DNA from: Candidatus Electrothrix sp. GW3-4
GTDB taxonomy: Bacteria; Desulfobacterota; Desulfobulbia; Desulfobulbales; Desulfobulbaceae
Assembly (NCBI RefSeq): GCF_037902255.1
Contig: NZ_CP147990.1
Span: 3,840,001 to 3,872,000, forward strand
Length of the DNA: 32,000 bases
Direction: 5' to 3'
Shown: piece by piece, positions 2,985 through 25,059 of the stretch
How positions within the stretch are numbered: the first letter of the stretch is position 1
How the letters are laid out: each line of letters opens with the position of its first letter
Program-made: the position numbers and the translations under genes
The notes under the pieces: model-generated
What the model saw: the letters and a program-made list of their open reading frames with translations, nothing else
Database searches by the model: none
What the model was told of the DNA's origin: nothing

Positions 2985-3965
2985 TTAAAAGGAATACCCC
3001 ATGGTTATATATACTGACCCCTGATCACTTTCAACTTCCTGATCAATCTGCCCCAACGGCTCCCCGGCAAGCACCTGGTACTGATCCCCGTCAACAGAGA
3101 TATCCGTCAACTGCACGCCCGCTTCCACAAACCACCACGGCGAGATCTGGAAGGTCCCGCTCACCTCAAACATATAGGCAGTGCCGTCCATATCGCCGGT
3201 AGACACCTTATTATAGTAAAGATGATGGAGTTCATCCTCGGAAGAGGCTAGAGGCGCCACAGAAAATTTTCCTGCGAGCTCAAACTGCGAGGTCAACTGC
3301 ACATCAGCAGCCAGCAGGAAATAGATCATGGAAAAGGTGTTCTCATAGGTAACGCCGGTAGAGCCGTTGCCGACATAGGTATAGCCTGAAATACCGGTGG
3401 GAGAGTACTGCATGATCAGGTTGCCCTCGTACTCAAAGTCCTGATACAGGTAACCGATACCGGCAGAGAGGCTCCACGGTCCCTGCTGGAGGTAAGTCCA
3501 CTCAAAATCCAGATCCAGGATGAATGCCTCAAACTCAGAGATACTGCTTTCCGAGTAGATATCCGCTGGTCCGCCCGAAGCAAACCAATCCCGGTCGATC
3601 ATGGTTTCGTCAGGATCATCAACAGCGGTCTTCAGGGTCCCATTGATGCGCCACATGGGGTTCAGGGTCAGCGAGCCATCAAAGCGGGCCAGCAGGATAT
3701 CCATGGGCCACTTCAGTTCACTGATCGGGAAGAAGGTATTCTCATTCTGTCCATTGGCATGGTTGATTTCGCCACCGATGGAAGAGGTCATATCGCCGCT
3801 CACCTCCTCCAGACCAAAGGAGAGGTCAATCATACTTGTTATGTACGGATCAACGTAGGCAGCAGCCTGGGCCTGGTTGAACAGCATACCGGTGCCCATC
3901 AATCCGAATGCCACTCCAAGTCCTCGTATTTTGCGTATCGCCTTTTTTTTTGCTGCTTGTTTCAT
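2985..3965 (-). CDS. omptin-like outer-membrane beta-barrel (putative OM protease), 326 aa
   Basis: Signal peptide ...FNQAQA/AA and a C-terminal aromatic ...MGYSF. Hand alignment to E. coli OmpT gives these correspondences: SELKWP~SQLDWK, TMIDRDWF~NMVDQDWM (Asp83/Asp85 pair), WSLSAGIGYLYQDFEY~YRLGLMAGYQESRYSF, and SSEDELHH~SSDNDEHY (Asp210/His212 region). The ATG overlaps the upstream stop by 1 nt. Confidence 0.6.
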   Translation of the reverse strand: MKQAAKKKAIRKIRGLGVAFGLMGTGMLFNQAQAAAYVDPYITSMIDLSFGLEEVSGDMTSSIGGEINHANGQNENTFFPISELKWPMDILLARFDGSLTLNPMWRINGTLKTAVDDPDETMIDRDWFASGGPADIYSESSISEFEAFILDLDFEWTYLQQGPWSLSAGIGYLYQDFEYEGNLIMQYSPTGISGYTYVGNGSTGVTYENTFSMIYFLLAADVQLTSQFELAGKFSVAPLASSEDELHHLYYNKVSTGDMDGTAYMFEVSGTFQISPWWFVEAGVQLTDISVDGDQYQVLAGEPLGQIDQEVESDQGSVYITMGYSF

Positions 3966-5146
3966 TATACTTTTCCTTCCTTTTTTCCTTTAAGAGACAC
4001 ATTTTTTAAAAGCGGTTTTTTTCCTTTTTCCTCTATGCTGCGTATTTGATCGAAATCAACACGATGGTATAATAAAATGAATAAATCTCCCAAATTATTT
4101 TCAGTATGAGGTATCAACAAGCCATTTTCCTCCTCGAAACAAGTAATCGCATCCTGAAGCTCAGCACTATAATCATAATTTATTTCACCAAAGTAATAAT
4201 TGAGCTTTCTGAGCATCAATTTTAAATATCTAATTCTGGTTAACTTATCAAGCTCCAACCATATCTGATATGCGGATACTGTTTCGTTTGGCGAAGGTCC
4301 ACTCTCCCCGAGGCAACCATTAAAATCTATTTTTTCCCCATACAATCCACGCAGTACCCACAAAGCGGCGGCCTCCACCAATGTTCTCTGGGCTCCGTGC
4401 ATGGCCTCGTTTAATTTTTCTTCTCTGGCAAAGCTCACCCCTCCTTCTCCGGCACCAAAACCAACAGAAAATTCATTTGATTTAGTATGCGTATTGAGCG
4501 TCAGAGTAGTCGCCGCCACAATAGTATTGTCCATCGCATTACCTACATGTACTGTTAGAGAGAGGCTTTTAGATGATTCAGCTTTTCCATATTCAATTTC
4601 CGCCGAACCATGCTTACCATCCACTTCAGCATTATTTCCAAACCCTTTGCTATGATAATCCTCGGAATCATTTTGTGTAAATACGCCTTTGATTCTAATT
4701 ATGCCGGTAACACCATAAATTTTTGCAAGCTCAAGCAAATATTTCTTATCCAATCTGCCGTACACATTTTCTCTTATCAGACCGTTCGGCAACGAATAGG
4801 GAATTACAATTTTTTTATTATAAACACTTCGTTTTATTATAGCTTCAAAATCATACTTACCAGCATCTGCCAACGGACCGTTATCCCTCATTGAACTGAT
4901 AATTAAAGCTTTAGAGTCGGTTATAATGGGCACTGTGCCGTCAAAAAAATCGTCCACCAAAAATAAAACAGGAGAACTCTCTGATTCCGAGAGTTTTTTC
5001 CCTACACACTTCACTGTCTCTGTAAGATTCGTAAGAGCGTCATGTGGTGTTTCCGTATTAATATTCGACATTGATGAATTAATATTAGAACAACCTGATG
5101 CTGCCAATAATAAATATATACAGAAAAAATATAATTTATCAGCCAT
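3965..5146 (-). CDS. lipoprotein, CsgG/HfaB-like N-terminal region fused to a PG_binding_1-like C-terminal domain (393 aa)
   Basis: Lipobox LLLAASG|C. PVLFLVDDFFDGT resembles the CsgG IAVxxFxDxTG motif. GIIRIKGVFTQND...SLSLTVHVGNAMDNTIVAATT...FSVGFGAG...AQRTLVEAAALWVLRGL follows the order of CsgG core elements. The C-terminal LKLMLRKLNYYFGEINYDYSAELQDAITCFEEENGLLIPHTENNLGDLFILL resembles LxxLGYYxGxIDGxFGxxTxxAVxxFQxxxGLxxTG. Recognised by eye only. Confidence 0.45.
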   Translation of the reverse strand: MADKLYFFCIYLLLAASGCSNINSSMSNINTETPHDALTNLTETVKCVGKKLSESESSPVLFLVDDFFDGTVPIITDSKALIISSMRDNGPLADAGKYDFEAIIKRSVYNKKIVIPYSLPNGLIRENVYGRLDKKYLLELAKIYGVTGIIRIKGVFTQNDSEDYHSKGFGNNAEVDGKHGSAEIEYGKAESSKSLSLTVHVGNAMDNTIVAATTLTLNTHTKSNEFSVGFGAGEGGVSFAREEKLNEAMHGAQRTLVEAAALWVLRGLYGEKIDFNGCLGESGPSPNETVSAYQIWLELDKLTRIRYLKLMLRKLNYYFGEINYDYSAELQDAITCFEEENGLLIPHTENNLGDLFILLYHRVDFDQIRSIEEKGKKPLLKNVSLKGKKEGKV

Positions 5147-5632
5147 GTTGATATATTACCCTGTCAATAAAAACAATCATAATTGATGAATTCGTAAAAA
5201 GTCGGTCGTGCCCTTCTTGACTGTTGTTAGGGTAAAAATCGCGAAATACTTATGGGGGGTTCCGGTTATGGAAATCTTGAGCAGTAAAATAAGTCGGTTC
5301 GTTGAATCGCGTCCGTTTTCTGGATTCAACAAAACTCAATAAGGCCACTTATCCACTATTAATCACGAAAATTTCCGTTTTTTACGAAACGGCAGAAAGA
5401 TAAAACAACAAAAAAGGGGTAAACGGCACATTTAAACCTGCCGATTAGAGGTGAGGAATTGATAAATCAAGTAGCACAACACATGATGTACCGTTATTAT
5501 ATTTGATTTAAAAATTACAAACGAACAGATATTCAAGGAACTTCATATAAGGTTCGGCCTGTTAAGCACGATAAAAAAAACCTACACACAGCGCAAAATT
5601 CTAAAGAGGATTTAAACTGCTCTCAAAAAAGA

Positions 5633-5968
5633 TCAATCACATTTAAACGTAAGGCTTTTAATCAAAAATTCCTGTGAAATATTATCACCGTCACTATCGT
5701 TGTAATTTCCATAGAACACACATTTTGGCTCTTCAATATTATCCACTGCTACAATATTCCCGTCCTCTTCCTTCACAATTTCTCCGTTTGTTTTGAGCGG
5801 AGTCGTTCCGACAAACACTTTCAGACTTTTATTCATAACGCTATTCAAGCTCGGATTGGCTTTCAAGCTTGGCACAGACGCCTTTTTTATTTCAGCGCCA
5901 CCTATCGCCGGCGCACTTACATATAAAAAAATCGCAACCAACAGAGCATACAGTGTCCTTGACAACAT
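5633..5968 (-). CDS. small secreted protein (111 aa), C-terminus ...FKCD
   Basis: The start is moved to the ATG at 5968, preceded by AAGGAG 7 nt upstream. Signal peptide MLSRTLYALLVAIFLYVSAPAIGGA. Two Cys residues in the mature part. No family recognised. Confidence 0.6.
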   Translation of the reverse strand: MLSRTLYALLVAIFLYVSAPAIGGAEIKKASVPSLKANPSLNSVMNKSLKVFVGTTPLKTNGEIVKEEDGNIVAVDNIEEPKCVFYGNYNDSDGDNISQEFLIKSLTFKCD

Positions 5969-6088
5969 AAACACTCTCCTTATAACAACATCATTCACCT
6001 TAAAATACAATATGTACCACACGCATACATCTTCTTTACATTCTAACTATACAACATTTTACCCATGAAGAATCGTATAAAACAATCC

Positions 6089-6110
6089 GGGACGTTTTTT
6101 TAAACGTCCC
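6089..6110 (-). terminator. candidate intrinsic terminator after the 137-aa repeat-protein gene
   Basis: GGGACGTTT (6089-6097), loop TTTT, AAACGTCCC (6102-6110): a perfect 9-bp stem. On the minus-strand transcript it is followed by GGAUUGUUUUAU, so the U-tract starts 5 nt after the stem and is imperfect. It lies 64 nt downstream of the stop at 6174. Confidence 0.4.
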
Positions 6111-6173
6111 GAAAAGAACCGCGATTCAATCACCAACAACAACGGCGACTGTGTCACTCAAAACAGCTGACGA

Positions 6174-6587
6174 TCAATCACATGTTTTACAGCTGCTCAC
6201 AACATTAACACCCTGAATGGATCTTTGATTGTTGCGTGCCTTCATTGTTAATTTCTTGAGTTCAGCATTTTGCTTGGAATCTTCCACTTCGCCGGTCATA
6301 ATATTCATACCCTGCACTGAATCAGTAGCTGAATTCTGATCCATAGAAACCGAACTTGAGGCCTCAACTTTCTGCGTGATGTTCTCAGACTTGCTGCTTT
6401 CGACAACGTTGATACCCTGTAAAGAATTTCGGTCGTCATCTGACTCCAGCTGAGTTTGACCGATCTCAGCATTTTGCGTGAGATCTTCCACGGGGTCACC
6501 GCCATGACCGCCCCAGCCATTAGCCATAGACACAGAAGGAACCATCAACATAGCCAATGCAATTGCGGTACAAATTTTTTTATTCAT
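6174..6587 (-). CDS. secreted Q/N/S-rich acidic repeat protein (137 aa), C-terminus ...KTCD
   Basis: The start is moved to the ATG at 6587, preceded by AAGGTGA. Signal peptide MNKKICTAIALAMLMVPSVSMA. There are three units of about 34 aa ending SLQGINVV (55-62), SVQGMNIM (90-97) and SIQGVNVV (123-130). QNAE[IL] occurs at 38 and 106. Confidence 0.7.
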   Translation of the reverse strand: MNKKICTAIALAMLMVPSVSMANGWGGHGGDPVEDLTQNAEIGQTQLESDDDRNSLQGINVVESSKSENITQKVEASSSVSMDQNSATDSVQGMNIMTGEVEDSKQNAELKKLTMKARNNQRSIQGVNVVSSCKTCD

Positions 6588-6640
6588 TTTTATCACCTTT
6601 CTTTTCTTGTTTCGGCCTAGCGTCATTGCCAGCCAGTACT

Positions 6641-6680
6641 ATTATAATGTCAATCTACGATACCATCACGCAGGTGTCAA
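6641..6680 (-). promoter_or_regulatory. sigma70-like promoter for the repeat-protein gene
   Basis: On the minus strand: TTGACA (6680-6675), a 17-nt spacer, then TAGATT (6657-6652). An overlapping TTGACA/TATAAT (TATAAT = 6646-6641) is also present. It sits about 55-60 nt upstream of the start codon. Confidence 0.35.
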
Positions 6681-6822
6681 TTGAAAATTAGTACTTTTCT
6701 GTAAAAAAATACAACTTTTTGTACTTTTCCGCTTGTGCCAGAATGAAAAAAAATAACTTCCCGATTTGCTCCACTGTTGCTGATCTGCTCAAATTGCATG
6801 GCTTCAAGAAGCGCAAAACAGC

Positions 6823-8565
6823 CTACAAACAAGGATTCAGCCCGCAAACTCCACAACGGCGACAGGAGCTCGTATCACAGGGCGGGGTGGTTTGGCCTGT
6901 TAAAGAGCGCTTCAGCTCCTTGGCGAGATACCCCGCCTGAATGCCATGATCAACCACCTGCCAGCAAAACAACTCATCATCCTCCCTGGGACGGACCGCA
7001 TACTGCCAGGAAGAGAGGCCATGTCGCTTCATAGCCTGTTTAAAGCTCGCCTTCCCCATACCTATATCAAGCAAAGCCGGGCCGATCCGCCGATCTACCC
7101 GGGAAAAAACGGCCTGAGCAAGGACCTTATCCGGTCGATCGACCTTGATATGGAGATTGTCCACTCTGGCAAAGGCCTTTTTCAGCTGTTTAATCTTCTT
7201 CTTCAAGTTGAGCACTGCCGCAGTGCAGTCCCTATCCTGTCTGGCCTGTTCCCTCTCCTGCCCACCAAAGGAAAGATACTGAAACGGCGTCCAGGGCTTA
7301 GGGACAAAGGAGTTCACCGAAAGGATCAGTTCGCAGAGACGTCCTTTTTTCTGGCCGATCGGCAGGATCTCCTGGCGGATTTTTCGCACAAGACCAACAA
7401 ATTCTTCCAGATCCTGTTCGGTTTCTGTGGGCAGGCCAACCATGACATAGAGCTTGAGGGTATAGATTCCTGCATCGACCAAGGCAACCGCTGCCGCGAT
7501 CAGGTCTTCCTCGCTCAGCCCCTTATTGATCACCCGGCGCAGGCGTTGGGAACAGCCATCCGGCGCAATGGCCACCGATTTCAGCCCGGAACGGGACAGC
7601 AGCTCCAGCAGCTGCGGAGAAATCCGGTCTGCCCGCAAAGAAGAAAAAGAGAGCGAGCAGCCGTTAGCCTGCAGGGAACCGGCAAGCTGATCCAGCAGCT
7701 CCGGGGCTGCCATCTCCATGCCCAGCAACCCCACCCGGTCAACCTCTGGAGGCCGCTGGGCAAGACTCTCCTGCACGGCCTCAGCTGACCAGAGTCGAGG
7801 GGGACGATAAATAAAACCAGCTGCGCAAAAACGGCAACCGCGACTGCATCCCCGCCCCAACTCCGTCATGTACATTCCCAGCTCCGCTTCAGGGGAAAGG
7901 AGTTCGGAATGGGCCGCTAACGAGGTCTTTTCCAGGGCCACCCGACGAACCTGTTGGGGCAGGCCATCCTGGACAGCAATTTCGCATACCCGCCCCTCGC
8001 TATCATAGCTCAAACTATAAGCAGAGGGCACATAGCAGCCAGGGATGGTCGCTCCAATATCCACCAGCCTGCGCCTATCAGTCAGCTCGGCCAGAGCAGG
8101 CAGGAGCTGGGGCAAGACCGCCTCTGCCTCCCCAATCACCATCAAATCGGCAAAGAGGGCCAAGGGCTCGGGATTCATAAAGACTGCAACCCCACCCAGC
8201 ACAACTAGGGGTGAGCCTGCTGCAATTTCCGTTGGCCTGTCCGCTGCATAGGGTGCCACACCACCGGCAGCCAGCATCGCAACCAGATGGACATAGTCGT
8301 GTTCAAAACTGATAGAACCCAAAACAAGGGGAAAATCCGCCAAAGGACGGCTGGATTCCAGGGAACGAAAGGGCTCCTGCCCTTGAGGATAGACAAAACG
8401 CTCACAGACGATCTCGTCCGAGGCATTCAGGAGGCGATAAAGAAGCTGAAAACCAAGATTAGAGACAGCAAGGGGATAGGTATTAGGATAGAGAAGGGCC
8501 ACTGGCAAGCGGCCCTTCCATTTTTTGCGGACTGTACCAGTCTCTGTTGCAAGCAGGGGATGCAC
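6823..8565 (-). CDS. B12-binding-domain-type radical SAM protein (580 aa)
   Basis: CSRGCRFC is a CxxxCxxC radical SAM cluster motif. It is preceded by an N-terminal Rossmann-like segment (VLGGVAVFMNPEP...MVIGEAE). The overall layout resembles the uncharacterised TIGR03960-type family, though the subfamily call is from memory only. Confidence 0.75.
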   Translation of the reverse strand: MHPLLATETGTVRKKWKGRLPVALLYPNTYPLAVSNLGFQLLYRLLNASDEIVCERFVYPQGQEPFRSLESSRPLADFPLVLGSISFEHDYVHLVAMLAAGGVAPYAADRPTEIAAGSPLVVLGGVAVFMNPEPLALFADLMVIGEAEAVLPQLLPALAELTDRRRLVDIGATIPGCYVPSAYSLSYDSEGRVCEIAVQDGLPQQVRRVALEKTSLAAHSELLSPEAELGMYMTELGRGCSRGCRFCAAGFIYRPPRLWSAEAVQESLAQRPPEVDRVGLLGMEMAAPELLDQLAGSLQANGCSLSFSSLRADRISPQLLELLSRSGLKSVAIAPDGCSQRLRRVINKGLSEEDLIAAAVALVDAGIYTLKLYVMVGLPTETEQDLEEFVGLVRKIRQEILPIGQKKGRLCELILSVNSFVPKPWTPFQYLSFGGQEREQARQDRDCTAAVLNLKKKIKQLKKAFARVDNLHIKVDRPDKVLAQAVFSRVDRRIGPALLDIGMGKASFKQAMKRHGLSSWQYAVRPREDDELFCWQVVDHGIQAGYLAKELKRSLTGQTTPPCDTSSCRRCGVCGLNPCL

Positions 8566-21458: not shown

Positions 21459-21520
21459 GACCGTCTTATCCTTTCATACGATTTGATGCAAGTAGGTGGT
21501 GAAAGATATTCAGCCAAGGA

Positions 21521-22147
21521 CTATTCACCAGCAGCAGGTCCTTCGGGCTCTGCTTCATCAATCTCCTCTGGCGTCTCAGTAGCTTCTTCCTCCTCTACAG
21601 CCTCTTGCTCCGCACTCACGTCTTCATTCCCAACAGACTCCTCCTGATCTACAGCCTCTTGTTCCGCAGTAGTTTCTTCATTCACAGCAGGAGCATTCTC
21701 ATCTATAATCCCTTGATCCGCACCAACGTTTTCATTTCCAGCAGGATCGTTCTGATCTATGGACTCTTGTGTCGCACTAACTTCTTGATGCGTTACTGGC
21801 TTGTTCTGCTCTGGGTCTCTTTCTTTAGCTCTTTTCATTTTGCGATACAGGCTAAACCGACCATAAGCAAAGTCATAGAGCTCTGATTTATCCTCAAGAG
21901 AGTTAAATCCTTTTTCAGCGATCTCCCCACTTTTCTTCCACTCACCCTGAGCATAGTAAAAATCACTCGCAATAAGATATCTATGAAAGTAGGCATCAAC
22001 GGATGCATAACAAATAGCTATAAGCGCTACAGCCAGGAATACCTTCTTATTTTTGCTCCCCTTAGGAGCTTTTATAAAAAGACAGAAAAAGAGTGGGACA
22101 AAAAGAAAAAATTGTAACAGGAAGACAATCAAATGAATTATGGACAT
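21521..22147 (-). CDS. membrane protein with acidic tandem-repeat C-terminal tail (208 aa)
   Basis: Two N-terminal hydrophobic segments, then a C-terminal tail of four 18-aa acidic repeats. No family recognised. Confidence 0.55.
   Translation of the reverse strand: MSIIHLIVFLLQFFLFVPLFFCLFIKAPKGSKNKKVFLAVALIAICYASVDAYFHRYLIASDFYYAQGEWKKSGEIAEKGFNSLEDKSELYDFAYGRFSLYRKMKRAKERDPEQNKPVTHQEVSATQESIDQNDPAGNENVGADQGIIDENAPAVNEETTAEQEAVDQEESVGNEDVSAEQEAVEEEEATETPEEIDEAEPEGPAAGE
21560..21775 (-). repeat. 4 x 54-bp in-frame tandem repeat inside the 208-aa CDS
   Basis: The DNA units 21560-21613, 21614-21667, 21668-21721 and 21722-21775 each end in ...c(t/c)cttg(n)(n)(n)cgc. They encode ATQESIDQNDPAGNENVG / ADQGIIDENAPAVNEETT / AEQEAVDQEESVGNEDVS / AEQEAVEEEEATETPEEI. 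Confidence 0.7.
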
Positions 22148-22256
22148 TTCTTCTTACCTTGAAATATTAAAATGTTATCTAACCAGGCCACTTACAGCAT
22201 TATCCATCAACACCTCGAAATTATTCACATCCAGTTCAGCTGATGATTACATCCAT

Positions 22257-22598
22257 TCACGCCTTCTTGACAAACTCTGACTTGAGCTTCATCGCGCCGA
22301 TCCCTTTAATTTTGCAATCAATATTATGATCGCCGTCGACCAGACGAATATTCTTGACCTTGGTCCCAACCTTCACAACAGAGGATGAGCCTTTCACTTT
22401 GAGGTCTTTTATCACCACAATGGCATCACCATCGCTCAGAGGGGTGCCATTGGCATCTTTTACAGCTGCTTCGTTTTCTTCTCCGCTTTGGTCGGAGTTG
22501 AGCACCCATTCGTGAGCGCATTCCGGGCATACCAACATTACGCCATCTTCATAGGTATATTCGGAGTTGCACTTTGGGCAAGGAGGGAGTTGACTCAT
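22257..22598 (-). CDS. yjdM: zinc-ribbon protein YjdM/PhnA family
   Basis: [25 protein letters not shown] zinc ribbon, plus the C-terminal [43 protein letters not shown] typical of YjdM/PhnA; 113 aa. Confidence 0.9.
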
Positions 22599-22694
22599 AG
22601 GTATATCTCTTTTTATTGTTTAGCAGTATTGCTAAATGGAACTTTTCTATATCGTTAACGTTGACAAATTGCTGTGGAAAAGATTTCGTTTTAC

Positions 22695-23075
22695 TCAAGA
22701 AGCTCCGCAGTCCTTCAGTAGCTTGCAAATATCAGAAATGATTCTCTCGCGTCTTTTGCTTGATAATGATTTTGTTGAGTATTTATCTTCATCACTTACC
22801 AAGTCACAAGAGTTATACAATTCGACAATCTTCTTCTTGCTCCACCTTTTACGTGTAAATCCAGGTGAAATAAAATTACGCTTTGGTGAGTACCAAAATT
22901 CTTCAGCTGAGAAATCAATGGCCTTAACGATTTCAGAATCTTCTTCTGGTACCGATGTCATACAGCATTTTGCTAATTCTTCGATGTTGAACGCGGCCCT
23001 GAGCTGATCCTTTGAAATCACAATCACAGGGTATACAGGCTCTCTAACACAGATAACAAATTTCTTTTCTTCCAT
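22695..23075 (-). CDS. hypothetical protein (126 aa), AT-rich orphan
   Basis: ORF track. More protein-like than the overlapping plus-strand ORF 22636-23007, and co-directional with its neighbours. No convincing SD and no family recognised. Confidence 0.4.
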   Translation of the reverse strand: MEEKKFVICVREPVYPVIVISKDQLRAAFNIEELAKCCMTSVPEEDSEIVKAIDFSAEEFWYSPKRNFISPGFTRKRWSKKKIVELYNSCDLVSDEDKYSTKSLSSKRRERIISDICKLLKDCGAS

Positions 23076-23269
23076 TTTTTCTGACTGTTACGGATTTAGG
23101 GGAGGGGGGCTCTGATTCGCGGCCCGGCGTTCGGGAAACGCAGCTCAACCCTTCTTTTTCTGATGTTTATTCTTTCTCGTAGTTAATTTGCCGTCTACAT
23201 GGACTGCTCTACAGACATCAACTTGATATTCTAGATTTTTATCACATAAATTCATTTTTCAATCATCAC

Positions 23270-23500
23270 GATTAAAATTGAAATCAGCATATTTTACGCT
23301 TCAATCGGCCTGATGTACATTTAAATCACTCTGATTCACATTTAAATCGCCTTGATTGAAGTGTAACTTGGCTTGATGCAAGTTTAAAATGGATCAATTC
23401 AAATTGGAATCGTCTTAATTCCAATCGAAATCGGGGTGATTCAAATTGACATCGGGTCAATTCCAATTGACTTTGGAACGATGCAAACGGCAAATCCTTG
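23270..23500. repeat. 11 x 21-bp perfectly phased degenerate tandem array, consensus about GATTCAAATTnAAATCGnnnT
   Basis: Hand-parsed units, each exactly 21 bp: gattaaaattgaaatcagcat / attttacgcttcaatcggcct / gatgtacatttaaatcactct / gattcacatttaaatcgcctt / gattgaagtgtaacttggctt / gatgcaagtttaaaatggatc / aattcaaattggaatcgtctt / aattccaatcgaaatcggggt / gattcaaattgacatcgggtc / aattccaattgactttggaac / gatgcaaacggcaaatccttg. Stop codons occur in all the frames I checked, and no ORF of 60 aa or more is present. Confidence 0.85.
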
Positions 23501-23523
23501 CCGTCAAGGAGGCAACCATCCGG

Positions 23524-23688
23524 TCACTCCAACTTTTGGAGATTTTCCCGCTGGACATATCGTATACCAATATCGCCATCATCGTCCGCTTCAATCTTTA
23601 CCCTTTTTTCTGTGAATCCTAAAACCTTCCCCGATACAGGATACACATAATCACCACCGGGTATGCGCTTGGTTCTAACTTCGGCCAA
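23524..23688 (-). CDS. possible small ORF (54 aa, TTG start)
   Basis: The minus-strand frame continuing after the TAG of the transposase-like ORF reads LAEVRTKRIPGGDYVYPVSGKVLGFTEKRVKIEADDDGDIGIRYVQRENLQKLE*. It looks protein-like, but it has a non-ATG start and no SD, is below the ORF-track cut-off, and overlaps the left inverted repeat. Confidence 0.2.
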   Translation of the reverse strand: MAEVRTKRIPGGDYVYPVSGKVLGFTEKRVKIEADDDGDIGIRYVQRENLQKLE

Positions 23689-24967
23689 TTCCCTCTAAGC
23701 GGCCATCGCCAAACGATTTCTTGGACGTGGCGGATAATCCATATTATTCAAGAGGTGCTCAAGAAGATTTCCATGTTCGGCCTCGAAAAACCTCAAAGCA
23801 GGGGTGGTATTATCCTCTCGTTTGATATGAACATTATGGATTACCGTCTGTGCCTGTAAATGTGAATCGCTCAGCCTATGTATTCCGTGATGTCGAAGTG
23901 ACAACTGAGCGTTTCTTCCCTTGACACAGGAACTTGACCTCTGGAAAAATTGAGCGCACTCTTTAGCGCTTTGTATCAGGGATGCCGTTTTTTCTGGATT
24001 GATCCCTGATATCAATCCGTCGTGTTGACCGATAATTGAAAGTAGTTCGGCTGATTGCTGTTGAATCAGCTCCTTTCTGACCTTATCCTTTTCTTTTTCC
24101 GCAACGAAAGAAAGATAGAAACCGGGAATCAGTCGATCCTTCAGCAGTATTTTTTCTTCACCGGAAAAATCTTTATTTTCGAGATGTTGATCCACCATTG
24201 TCCAAAAGAAGGCTATGGTGGAAACTAAATTGGCCACAACCTTATACGCTTTTTTTACATGATCGCGACATTTCCCGGAAAGACCGGCTGCCGCTTTATT
24301 TATTTCGGAAAAGCAGGAGTCCAGGAGGCTCTCTACCGTAGAAGGGTCCTGCCTTTCTCCTGTTATGGGATCATAAGGGTGATAAATATGCCCGATCCTC
24401 TTTCTCGCCGCACAGATGGTTTCCTGGTTTTCACGAGCTTTCAGCAGTTCCGCCTCCGCACTTTTTCTTTGTTTTTCAGCAAGGTTAACCTTTTTTGCAA
24501 AACCCGGTCTCCTGCCTCTCGGGCGACGCTCCCGTGAATCGTAACAATGCATTTCTTCTTTTATTTTATCTGCTTATTTCTCTGCTTATTTCTCTGCCGA
24601 TTGAAAAGCTTTTTCCGCTCTTCTGATCTTCGAAGCAAGCGGCCCGGAAGTTCCTTTGCCTATATCGTGAGATACATGAAAAATATCCGACGAATGATGA
24701 ACCCCTTTATCGAGGAATGAAGCCGGTTGTGATTATTTCCTCTTACTTTATCTGGAGAAATTTGATATTGCGTGGCCATAGCTGCTTGTTTTTGTTGGTT
24801 TGTTCTTTGGTTGGGAAAAACCTAATACAAAATCAAGCAGCTTTCATCTATCTTATTCTTCTAAAAAAATATTTTTTTCACAGGCCACTTTCTCCAAAAA
24901 ATAGAAAGCTCCAAGAGGATTGAGCTGTACTTTGGCAGTACAATATTGGCCGAACTTAGAACCAAGC
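23667..24967 (-). mobile_element. IS-like element remnant (1301 bp) bounded by 23-bp imperfect inverted repeats
   Basis: Left gcttggttctaacttcggccaat (23667-23689) versus the reverse complement of 24945-24967, gcttggttctaagttcggccaat: 22/23 identical. Both read inward. The element encloses the transposase-like ORF. I saw no flanking direct repeat. Confidence 0.45.
23695..24552 (-). pseudogene. transposase-like protein, apparently the C-terminal portion only (285 aa)
   Basis: FQRSSSCVKGRNAQLSLRHHGIHRLSDSHLQAQTVIHNVHIKREDNTTPALRFF resembles the C-terminal SSxxEGxNxxL...HN...R.DG.T.A.RFF signature of some DDE-transposase-associated families. I recall DUF6399-type annotations but cannot verify that. 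The about 390 bp between its start and the right IR holds only short broken frames on the same strand (e.g. MATQYQISPDKVRGNNHNRL..., ...GKGTSGPLASKIRRAEKAFQSAEK*). Confidence 0.45.
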
Positions 24968-25059
24968 CCTTAATTTTATCAGCTTGTTTTTCATCAAGCT
25001 GATACTCTATTCGCAATTACAGCATGTTGAAAGGGAAATTTTATAATTTCCTATACAGT

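Follow-up and report, generated by a model that had tools for sequence, protein, structure and literature searches.

What purpose does a small secreted protein with three repeats that recall curlin serve in a cable bacterium, and could it be the subunit of a fibre? The gene in question lies at positions 6174..6587 on the minus strand of the window, by which we mean the whole stretch of 32,000 nucleotides analysed from Candidatus Electrothrix sp. GW3-4 (contig NZ_CP147990.1), a cable bacterium that bears the name Ca. E. antwerpensis (PMC11247825). Its product of 137 amino acids (aa), followed by a stop codon, reads MNKKICTAIALAMLMVPSVSMA|NGWGGHGGDP...SSCKTCD from 6587 to 6174 and is identical to the hypothetical protein WGN25_16995 of the same strain. 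The gene was found to head a conserved three-gene cassette. The explanation that we prefer is that its product is the putative fibre subunit of a previously undescribed secretion-assembly system, which would be curli- or Fap-like in its working and built from unrelated sequence families. We give this explanation an even chance of being correct.

Three-Gene Cassette and Its Distribution

In every locus examined, one or more repeat-protein genes are followed by a gene for a two-cysteine protein of about 110 aa and then by a lipoprotein gene. This order is kept in 19 cable-bacterial loci, three Neisseria loci and two divergent metagenome contigs, and the cassette was present in every Electrothrix and Electronema locus retrieved. 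The cable-bacterial loci include those of Ca. Electrothrix gigas HY10-6, YB6 (Ca. E. yaqonensis) and Ca. Electronema aureum, nielsenii, halotolerans, KV, TJ, PJ, JM and JC. The cassette is regarded as a conserved unit because the flanking genes differ among the genomes. The genome scan was pattern-based, was seeded with the better-conserved lipoprotein and missed the Neisseria loci; the distribution seen here, cable bacteria plus a few Neisseria, is therefore to be read as a minimum.

The three Neisseria loci come from three assemblies, including two complete genomes. Their cassette encodes a 123-aa repeat protein devoid of cysteines, a 124-aa small protein and a 295-aa lipoprotein that lacks the peptidoglycan-binding domain described below, and after it comes a fourth gene, whose product of 176-189 aa matches nothing in Pfam. 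These cassettes occupy positions 6001-8462 of the fetched loci L010-L012 (Neisseria sp. Dent CA1/247, CP091522.1; LT906434.1).

Most Electronema loci and some Electrothrix loci carry tandem paralogues of two types. A-type proteins have the N-terminus FDPF.GI..GIAQG and the C-terminus C...C[EDQ], and B-type proteins have FDQF.DA..GLFQG and SCDSCN at the respective ends. A single subunit gene is present in the window and in the E. gigas type, and the window protein looks A-type by its signal peptide and its SCKTCD end. Ca. E. yaqonensis YB6 has an array (L026 4938-8573; CP178758.1) of seven tandem A-type genes: six encode identical proteins of 141 aa and recur with a period of 537 bp, and the remaining one encodes a 137-aa variant. 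A single B-type gene comes next, ahead of the genes for the small protein and the lipoprotein. Loci of the E. gigas type also have, about 145 bp upstream of the subunit gene and on its strand, a gene for a secreted VWA-domain protein of 511 aa (L001 6321-7856; L005 4351-5889); it is preceded by ParA-like and CHAD genes and is absent from the window. Searches of the accessible literature for a link between cable bacteria and CsgG, amyloid or the cassette returned nothing.

Repeat Protein and Its Family

The window protein matched no family in Pfam or NCBIfam (hmmscan, E <= 1, 0 families), and a word-index search of 5.8 billion proteins returned only the window protein itself. An exhaustive HMMER scan of 1.84 billion cluster representatives yielded about 13 small relatives of 100-147 aa with 28-37% identity, to which a profile search added proteins of Ca. 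Electrothrix AW1 and AW5, Desulfobulbus sp. TB and the 123-aa Neisseria protein. The search matches and the open reading frames (ORFs) from the fetched loci gave a family set of 61 distinct sequences. Among 36 members scanned against Pfam and NCBIfam, no family matched more than two, and none of the matched families was curlin or Fap; likewise, no sequence match to the family was found in the PDB. The repeat-protein family is real but rare, and it is without annotation. Two longer proteins were rejected as relatives: P0007 (882 aa), a long repeat protein with a zinc-finger-like unit that matched only over a short stretch, and P0014 (2873 aa), which matched only over short stretches.

Every member combines a signal peptide with three repeats, each 34-35 aa long, and the three-repeat core spans 97-105 aa in 53 of the 53 members measured. 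The consensus over 173 repeat units from the 61 sequences is Q(72%)-x6-D-L-x-L-x-S-x7-V-Q(99%)-[GA](100%)-x-N(100%)-V-[IV]-x-G. An earlier sequence-only reading of this DNA had described a secreted protein with three such repeats and had named a lack of conservation among homologues as the result that would speak against it; since the motifs are kept over 173 units, no such lack was found.

The details of that description were likewise recovered in the translated minus-strand ORF, the strand on which the features of the cassette given below lie. Residues 1-22 (MNKKICTAIALAMLMVPSVSMA; 6522..6587) form a Sec signal peptide, with the cleavage site placed by reading the sequence; a K-rich N-terminus, a hydrophobic stretch and a small-x-small pattern are common to all homologues. 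A longer ORF starting at 6626 was rejected because the homologues and the NCBI record WGN25_16995 begin at MNKK. The mature chain of 115 aa (about 12 kDa) starts with NGWGGHGGDP and is acidic and rich in S, N and Q (isoelectric point 4.5; 18 D+E vs 10 K+R; S+N+Q+T 43/115), with W25 as its only F, W or Y. Its N-terminal tail (residues 23-33, NGWGGHGGDPV; 6489..6521) is predicted to be disordered.

Repeat 1 covers residues 34-62 (EDLTQNAEIGQTQLESDDDRNSLQGINVV; 6402..6488), repeat 2 residues 68-97 (ENITQKVEASSSVSMDQNSATDSVQGMNIM; 6297..6386) and repeat 3 residues 102-130 (EDSKQNAELKKLTMKARNNQRSIQGVNVV; 6198..6284). The motifs SLQGINVV, SVQGMNIM and SIQGVNVV start at S55, S90 and S123. In the family, Q38, Q57, G58 and N60 of the first repeat and Q106, Q125 and N128 of the third are invariant or almost so, and Q92 and N95 of the second are invariant. 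In a shuffle test with 2000 permutations, self-similarity was strongest between repeats 1 and 3 (z = 11.7; 0/2000 shuffles equal), followed by repeats 1 and 2 (z = 5.2; 1/2000), and it was weak between repeats 2 and 3 (z = 2.5).

The chain ends in the tail SSCKTCD (6177..6197), which contains a CxxC motif. A C-terminal C-x(2-4)-C occurs in 41/61 family sequences and at least one C-terminal cysteine in 48/61, while 13/61 have none. The GWGGHGG motif was not found in the relatives; it is unique to the window protein and hence no family feature. Other lineages have Cys- or His-rich N-terminal tails of their own, namely CMDC in the E. gigas type, GGRHHQFGG in YB6 and NHGNGQFQHHQFGG in a metagenomic member. 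In the E. gigas-type orthologues (L001 8001-8408; L005 6048-6464) and in P0029 and P0032, CMDC forms a second CxxC at the mature N-terminus; it sits where the window protein has GWGGHGG, and the C-terminal CxxC is also present. Head-to-tail disulfide or metal bridges between stacked subunits that bear CMDC would be possible. The window protein is the polar outlier of the family, with a grand average of hydropathy of -0.83 (family range -0.6 to +0.34) and 24 charged residues in 97.

Predicted Fold of the Repeat Protein

The AlphaFold2 model of the repeat protein, run with a 36-sequence alignment, has a mean predicted local distance difference test score (pLDDT) of 81, with values >90 over most of residues 35-130. 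It contains nine strands, three per repeat (36-42, 45-50 and 60-68; 70-76, 79-85 and 91-102; 105-109, 112-118 and 124-131). The signal peptide (pLDDT <50) and the GWGGHGG tail are disordered; residues 23-27 have pLDDT <50, and the block mean over residues 21-30 is 52. We read the model as a three-rung beta-solenoid, on which the conserved residues would form the ladders Q38/Q72/Q106, Q57/Q92/Q125 and N60/N95/N128. The polar outlier is nonetheless folded with pLDDT >90.

The Foldseek comparison of this model with the PDB returned nothing at E <= 1e-3. The two best leads, both weak, were the FapC fibril 9u4u (E 0.014) and the CsgA fibril 8enq (E 0.025; template modelling (TM) score 0.12), and further weak leads were other beta-solenoids, e.g., SV2 luminal domains and ice-binding proteins. 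The prediction thus supports the solenoid fold class, and no specific structural relative was identified among these matches.

Cassette Lipoprotein and Small Two-Cysteine Protein

The third cassette gene (3965..5146) encodes a lipoprotein of 393 aa with the lipobox L-A-A-S-G-C and Ser at +2. A domain modelled with the CsgG/FlgT/HpaA fold is followed by a C-terminal PG_binding_1-like domain. The lipoprotein measures 295-547 aa across the loci and is much better conserved than the subunit, its homologues being 54-71% identical to the lipoprotein of the window vs 27-37% for the subunit; every named homologue in this range is cable-bacterial. The PG_binding_1 domain was detected in 8/9 members (best E 2.4e-5), being present in the cable-bacterial versions and absent from those of Neisseria.

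The AlphaFold2 model of the lipoprotein is of moderate quality (mean pLDDT 68). Foldseek gave 26 PDB matches at E <= 1e-3, mostly to CsgG but also to the FlgT/Vibrio LPHT ring and HpaA, and then to LptE. The matches to FlgT, CsgG and HpaA have E-values from 2e-5 to 1e-3, and the CsgG entries 4uv2, 4uv3, 6l7a, 6si7 and 4q79 E-values from 5e-5 to 5e-3 with probabilities of 0.98-1.00; TM-scores are 0.37-0.5 by target length (0.37-0.49 for these CsgG entries). According to the model, the lipoprotein has the CsgG alpha/beta fold. At the level of sequence, the CsgG family of Pfam matched 0/9 lipoprotein members at a cut-off of E <= 10, the probability from hhalign with E. coli CsgG was 0.6%, and the lipoprotein profile found no CsgG among the PDB sequences.

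As this fold is common to FlgT, HpaA and LptE, it is by itself no proof of a channel. The argument for a channel comes from two conserved hairpins of alternating hydrophobic and polar residues at positions 164-188 (F169..A173-E-V175-DGKHG-E-A182-E-I184-E185-Y186-G-V188) and 225-241 (K-F226-S-I228-G-F230-G-Y232-GEGS-M237-S-F239-A), both in low-confidence segments of the model (residues 161-187 and 223-243). The beta-hairpin-beta-beta-hairpin-helix order of the lipoprotein is the order in the E. coli CsgG sequence. In CsgG, the transmembrane hairpins TM1 and TM2 are located between core strands and form a 36-stranded barrel. The lipoprotein hairpins appear topologically equivalent to TM1 and TM2, whose positions we take to be those of the published CsgG structure, and are putative membrane-inserting elements. 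To our knowledge, FlgT, HpaA and LptE lack two long amphipathic hairpin insertions.

The main rival explanation starts from the same models. It holds that the repeat protein is a beta-solenoid that does not polymerise, e.g., a periplasmic or surface protein for binding or capping, or an adhesin, and that the lipoprotein is a non-channel scaffold that tethers it to the outer membrane and peptidoglycan, like FlgT, HpaA, LptE or the TolB N-domain. The non-channels FlgT/LPHT ring, HpaA and LptE are indeed among the top Foldseek matches of the lipoprotein, and the PG_binding_1 domain fits a periplasmic tether. Moreover, in its strongly hydrophilic and acidic character the window protein resembles a soluble protein, and AlphaFold2 folds it confidently as a monomer. 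However, the conserved amphipathic hairpins at the CsgG TM1/TM2 positions are a feature that FlgT, HpaA and LptE are not known to have, and a three-rung solenoid without obvious caps, with Q/N ladders, tandem paralogues and a seven-fold amplification is more typical of a polymer subunit. We consider this rival rather unlikely, with a probability that is still far from negligible.

The second cassette gene (5633..5968, with the ATG at 5968 after AAGGAG) encodes a secreted protein of 111 aa with two invariant cysteines (PKCvFYGNY...C-terminal C). It was detected in 23/24 cassette loci; it is also present in YB6, where the motif scan missed it, and in a divergent metagenome locus. Across the loci the protein has about 110-124 aa. 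Its mature N-terminus (AEIKKaSIP..PSL.SV) is conserved and its linker varies, and in the C-terminal domain (TNG...VD...PKC.FYGNY...C) both cysteines are invariant. Pfam and PDB searches with it gave no match. At the sequence level, all three components of the cassette are new families.

Comparison with Known Fibre Systems

The likeness to curlin had been presented by the sequence-only reading as a resemblance and not as a family assignment, and that caution was justified. PF07012 matched 0/36 family members at E <= 5, and hhalign of the family profile against E. coli CsgA gave a probability of 1.2%. Judged by its sequence, the repeat protein is not a member of the curlin family, from which it departs in the hidden Markov model (HMM) search, in repeat length and in motif spacing. 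The curli-like logic is nevertheless stronger than that reading could see, because a CsgG-fold lipoprotein is encoded two genes downstream and the protein is predicted to be a beta-solenoid with Q/N ladders.

The subunit of curli (type VIII secretion) is likewise small and Sec-exported, abounds in Q, N, G and S, and has imperfect repeats and a predicted beta-solenoid with Q/N ladders. The A-type/B-type pairs recall the paired subunit genes CsgA/CsgB, and equally FapC/FapB. Also shared are a lipoprotein of CsgG fold, with two amphipathic hairpins at what appear to be the TM1/TM2 positions, and a small secreted accessory protein, and the CsgA N-terminus GGGGNHGGGG is similar to the Gly/His-rich N-terminal tail of the window protein. 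However, CsgA has five two-strand repeats of 19-23 aa with the spacing S-x5-Q-x-G-x-G-N-x-A-x3-Q, whereas the cassette family has three three-strand repeats of 34-35 aa with the spacing Q-x18/19-Q-[GA]-x-N-V-[IV]-x-G. Unlike CsgA, the cassette family has a C-terminal CxxC; the cassette has one accessory gene where curli has CsgC, E and F, and the peptidoglycan-binding domain sets its lipoprotein apart from CsgG. The conserved N-terminal peptide and C-terminal domain of the small protein echo the layout of CsgF, which is an analogy only.

The closer analogue in architecture is FapB/FapC, the nucleator and the major subunit of the Fap functional amyloid of Pseudomonas. The repeats of FapC are three in number and 37 aa long, and its conserved CxxC, which lies outside the fibre core, has been proposed to cross-link (PMC6173800). 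The FapC entries of the PDB confirm its repeat motif S.GN[LVI]G[AV]N[IV]AAG. Three repeats of similar length, conserved Q/N positions and a CxxC outside the repeat core are common to both families, as is a short G-[VIL]-N-V-x-x-G motif (G-V-N-V-A-A-G in FapC vs Q-G-x-N-V-I-x-G in the cassette family), and this likeness at motif level covers only 7 residues. In contrast to the cassette family, FapC has long linkers between its repeats. The trimeric barrel FapF, the C39-like peptidase FapD, and FapA and FapE of the fapABCDEF operon are absent as partners; the cassette has instead the CsgG-fold lipoprotein and the small Cys protein, and the sole Pfam match is PG_binding_1.

These likenesses bear on the proposal of a true but far-diverged homology between the repeat protein and FapB/FapC or curlin, which would place it in one of those families. 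The number and similar length of the repeats, the CxxC and the G-phi-N-V-phi-x-G core motif are as in FapC, and the FapC and CsgA fibrils are the two best, weak Foldseek matches. Nonetheless, the family profile, run against all PDB chain sequences at E <= 10, found neither FapC (9u4u, 9nqd) nor CsgA (8enq). Neither curlin nor Fap is among the Pfam and NCBIfam matches, the hhalign comparison with CsgA stays at about 1%, and FapA, D, E and F are missing among the partner genes, which show no sequence match to CsgE, F or G either. We therefore consider true homology improbable.

A further three-gene unit is HfaA-HfaB-HfaD, the holdfast anchor of Caulobacter, in which a small curlin-like secreted protein, HfaA, is exported with the aid of HfaB, a lipoprotein of the CsgG family on which it depends, and assembles on the cell surface into multimers that resist heat and sodium dodecyl sulphate (SDS). 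By comparison, HfaB is a CsgG member at sequence level, and HfaA is not known to have the three-repeat QGxN architecture. FlgT (Vibrio H-ring), HpaA and LptE, the high Foldseek matches of the cassette lipoprotein, are lipoproteins or periplasmic scaffolds of the envelope which, unlike the cassette lipoprotein, are not linked to repeat-protein genes.

Proposed Assembly and Role in Cable Bacteria

In the working that we propose, the subunit of about 12 kDa would first be exported by Sec and then pass the outer membrane through an oligomeric, CsgG-like channel of the lipoprotein, tethered to peptidoglycan in cable bacteria. The small protein might help this passage as an adaptor, a cap or a nucleation factor. 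The monomer would fold as a three-rung beta-solenoid, and its open edge strands would let it stack head to tail to give a thin fibre of amyloid-like character. Covalent or metal-mediated cross-links could come from the terminal cysteines and, in some lineages, from the Cys/His tails at the N-terminus. Such a fibre would most likely be extracellular or attached to the surface, as matrix, sheath or adhesive material. A promoter of its own and a terminator hairpin ahead of the accessory genes would give a high ratio of subunit to machinery.

Several points weigh against this explanation. Polymerisation, secretion and expression of the repeat protein are predictions from sequence and models. No sequence-level homology to CsgA, FapC or CsgG was found, the CsgG-type alpha/beta fold occurs in the non-channels FlgT, HpaA and LptE as well, and the lipoprotein model is only moderate. 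The Foldseek TM-scores of the subunit are only 0.1-0.2, so that the solenoid geometry depends on the AlphaFold2 prediction from 36 sequences. No member of the family is more hydrophilic than the window protein, whose repeat core has no aromatic residue, a composition atypical for an amyloid core. No counterpart of the terminator hairpin was detected behind the subunit gene of the E. gigas locus, and the link between copy number and morphology in YB6 rests on a single strain.

That strain has abundant non-conductive extracellular sheaths of undefined nanofibres, and its ridges are 2-3 times wider (PMC12093952). Its seven A-type genes and its morphology are counted in favour of the preferred explanation, and they enter as well into a further alternative, according to which the cassette builds a periplasmic structure specific to cable bacteria. 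The repeat protein would then form the ~3-nm strands of the conductive fibres, or a cartwheel/ridge scaffold, with the lipoprotein as the anchor and with Cys/His residues, including the GWGGHGG tail and the CxxC, that bind or cap nickel bis(dithiolene). All Electrothrix and Electronema loci retrieved have the cassette, the named lipoprotein homologues with at least 54% identity are all cable-bacterial, and the fibre proteins of cable bacteria are not yet identified. The peptidoglycan-binding domain of the lipoprotein keeps a periplasmic role open. The conductive fibres contain 3.1-nm strand components (PMC11976967), and cysteine capping of Ni(ett) oligomers, i.e., of nickel bis(dithiolene) oligomers, has been modelled (bioRxiv 10.1101/2025.10.10.681601). 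The C-terminal CxxC in 41/61 members and the N-terminal CMDC or His/Gly tails in several Electrothrix lineages, the window protein included, would suit such capping, and YB6 with its wider ridges has seven subunit genes.

However, the CsgG-like channel argues for export past the outer membrane, and 13/61 members, among them cable-bacterial B-types, have no C-terminal cysteine. The subunit, at 27-37% identity, is more poorly conserved than the lipoprotein, which is unexpected for a precisely templated conductor. The amplification in YB6 is explained at least equally well by the overproduction of non-conductive extracellular sheaths in this strain, and the literature searches gave no known proteomic link. 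The same cassette, moreover, occurs in Neisseria, a genus for which we know of no conductive fibres. We consider this periplasmic role very improbable.

Known secretion systems for bacterial functional amyloids are few, chiefly curli and Fap, and the cassette, if our preferred explanation is true, would be the third. It comprises three unannotated protein families in a compact three-gene layout and would thus be easy to transplant and test. Since it is present in all cable-bacterial loci retrieved, and since the proteins of the fibres, ridges and sheaths are still unidentified, it offers concrete candidate genes for an envelope or extracellular fibre. Cable bacteria have no genetic system; the repeat protein should be within reach of targeted proteomics or antibody-based detection. 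Without formic-acid pre-treatment, polymers of the amyloid type are as a rule resistant to SDS and trypsin, and this could be why such a component has been missed by standard proteomics. Should the product form a matrix fibre and nothing more, it would all the same be a new and very small (12 kDa, three-rung) beta-solenoid building block of interest for engineered protein materials. Were the periplasmic alternative true, the repeat protein would be the long-sought protein scaffold of the conductive fibres or of the ridge/cartwheel structures.

Expression Signals and Genomic Setting

The sequence-only reading had assigned the gene its own promoter, Shine-Dalgarno sequence and terminator. All three are present as consensus matches; the gene is not a stand-alone unit but heads the conserved cassette. 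Upstream lies a sigma-70-like promoter (TTGACA-17-TAGATT; 6652..6680) with 10/12 consensus matches, and the Shine-Dalgarno sequence AAAGGTGAT is found a few bases 5' of the ATG. An intrinsic-terminator-like hairpin (6086..6113) with a 12-bp stem, 6 GC pairs and a T-rich tail begins 61 nt past the stop codon, and its folding free energy, read from 6113 to 6086, is -18.3 kcal/mol (z -3.4). The function of this promoter and of the terminator ahead of the accessory genes is putative. The small gene and the lipoprotein gene are unusually far apart, and the 486 bp that separate them (5147-5632) contain a promoter-like sequence (5626->5598, TTGAGA-17-TAGAAT) and a weak terminator-like hairpin (5392->5375). 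The Rfam scan of window positions 3500-7200 gave no match.

The whole cassette forms a low-GC island, with a G + C content of 38.5% over window positions 3965-6700 vs 52-53% in the flanks. This dip exceeds those in other cable-bacterial genomes (roughly none to 12 points), and the neighbourhood of the GW3-4 cassette differs from that in E. gigas, YB6 and Electronema. The low G + C content and the differing neighbourhood may reflect relocation or lateral acquisition of the cassette within cable bacteria.

On one side, the cassette is flanked by a TIGR03960-type radical S-adenosylmethionine (SAM) gene and ftsZ. The repeat protein was considered as the precursor of a ribosomally synthesised and post-translationally modified peptide made by the adjacent radical SAM gene. 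This was rejected because that gene lies outside the low-GC cassette and is unlinked to the cassette in other genomes; the repeat protein, moreover, carries a classical Sec signal.

On the other side, there is a gene for an omptin-like outer-membrane beta-barrel protein of 326 aa (2985-3965, minus strand; PF01278, E 1e-10) with the C-terminal end ...GYSF. Its ATG overlaps the stop codon of the lipoprotein gene (TAATG), which suggests translational coupling of the two genes; its G + C content is 51.6% vs 37.6% for the lipoprotein gene. No omptin-like homologue adjoins the cassette in any other locus fetched. A second low-GC stretch of the window (21500-25000, 39-45%), which contains a PhnA/YjdM gene, a DUF6399 gene and two ORFs with no Pfam match, appears to be unrelated to the cassette.

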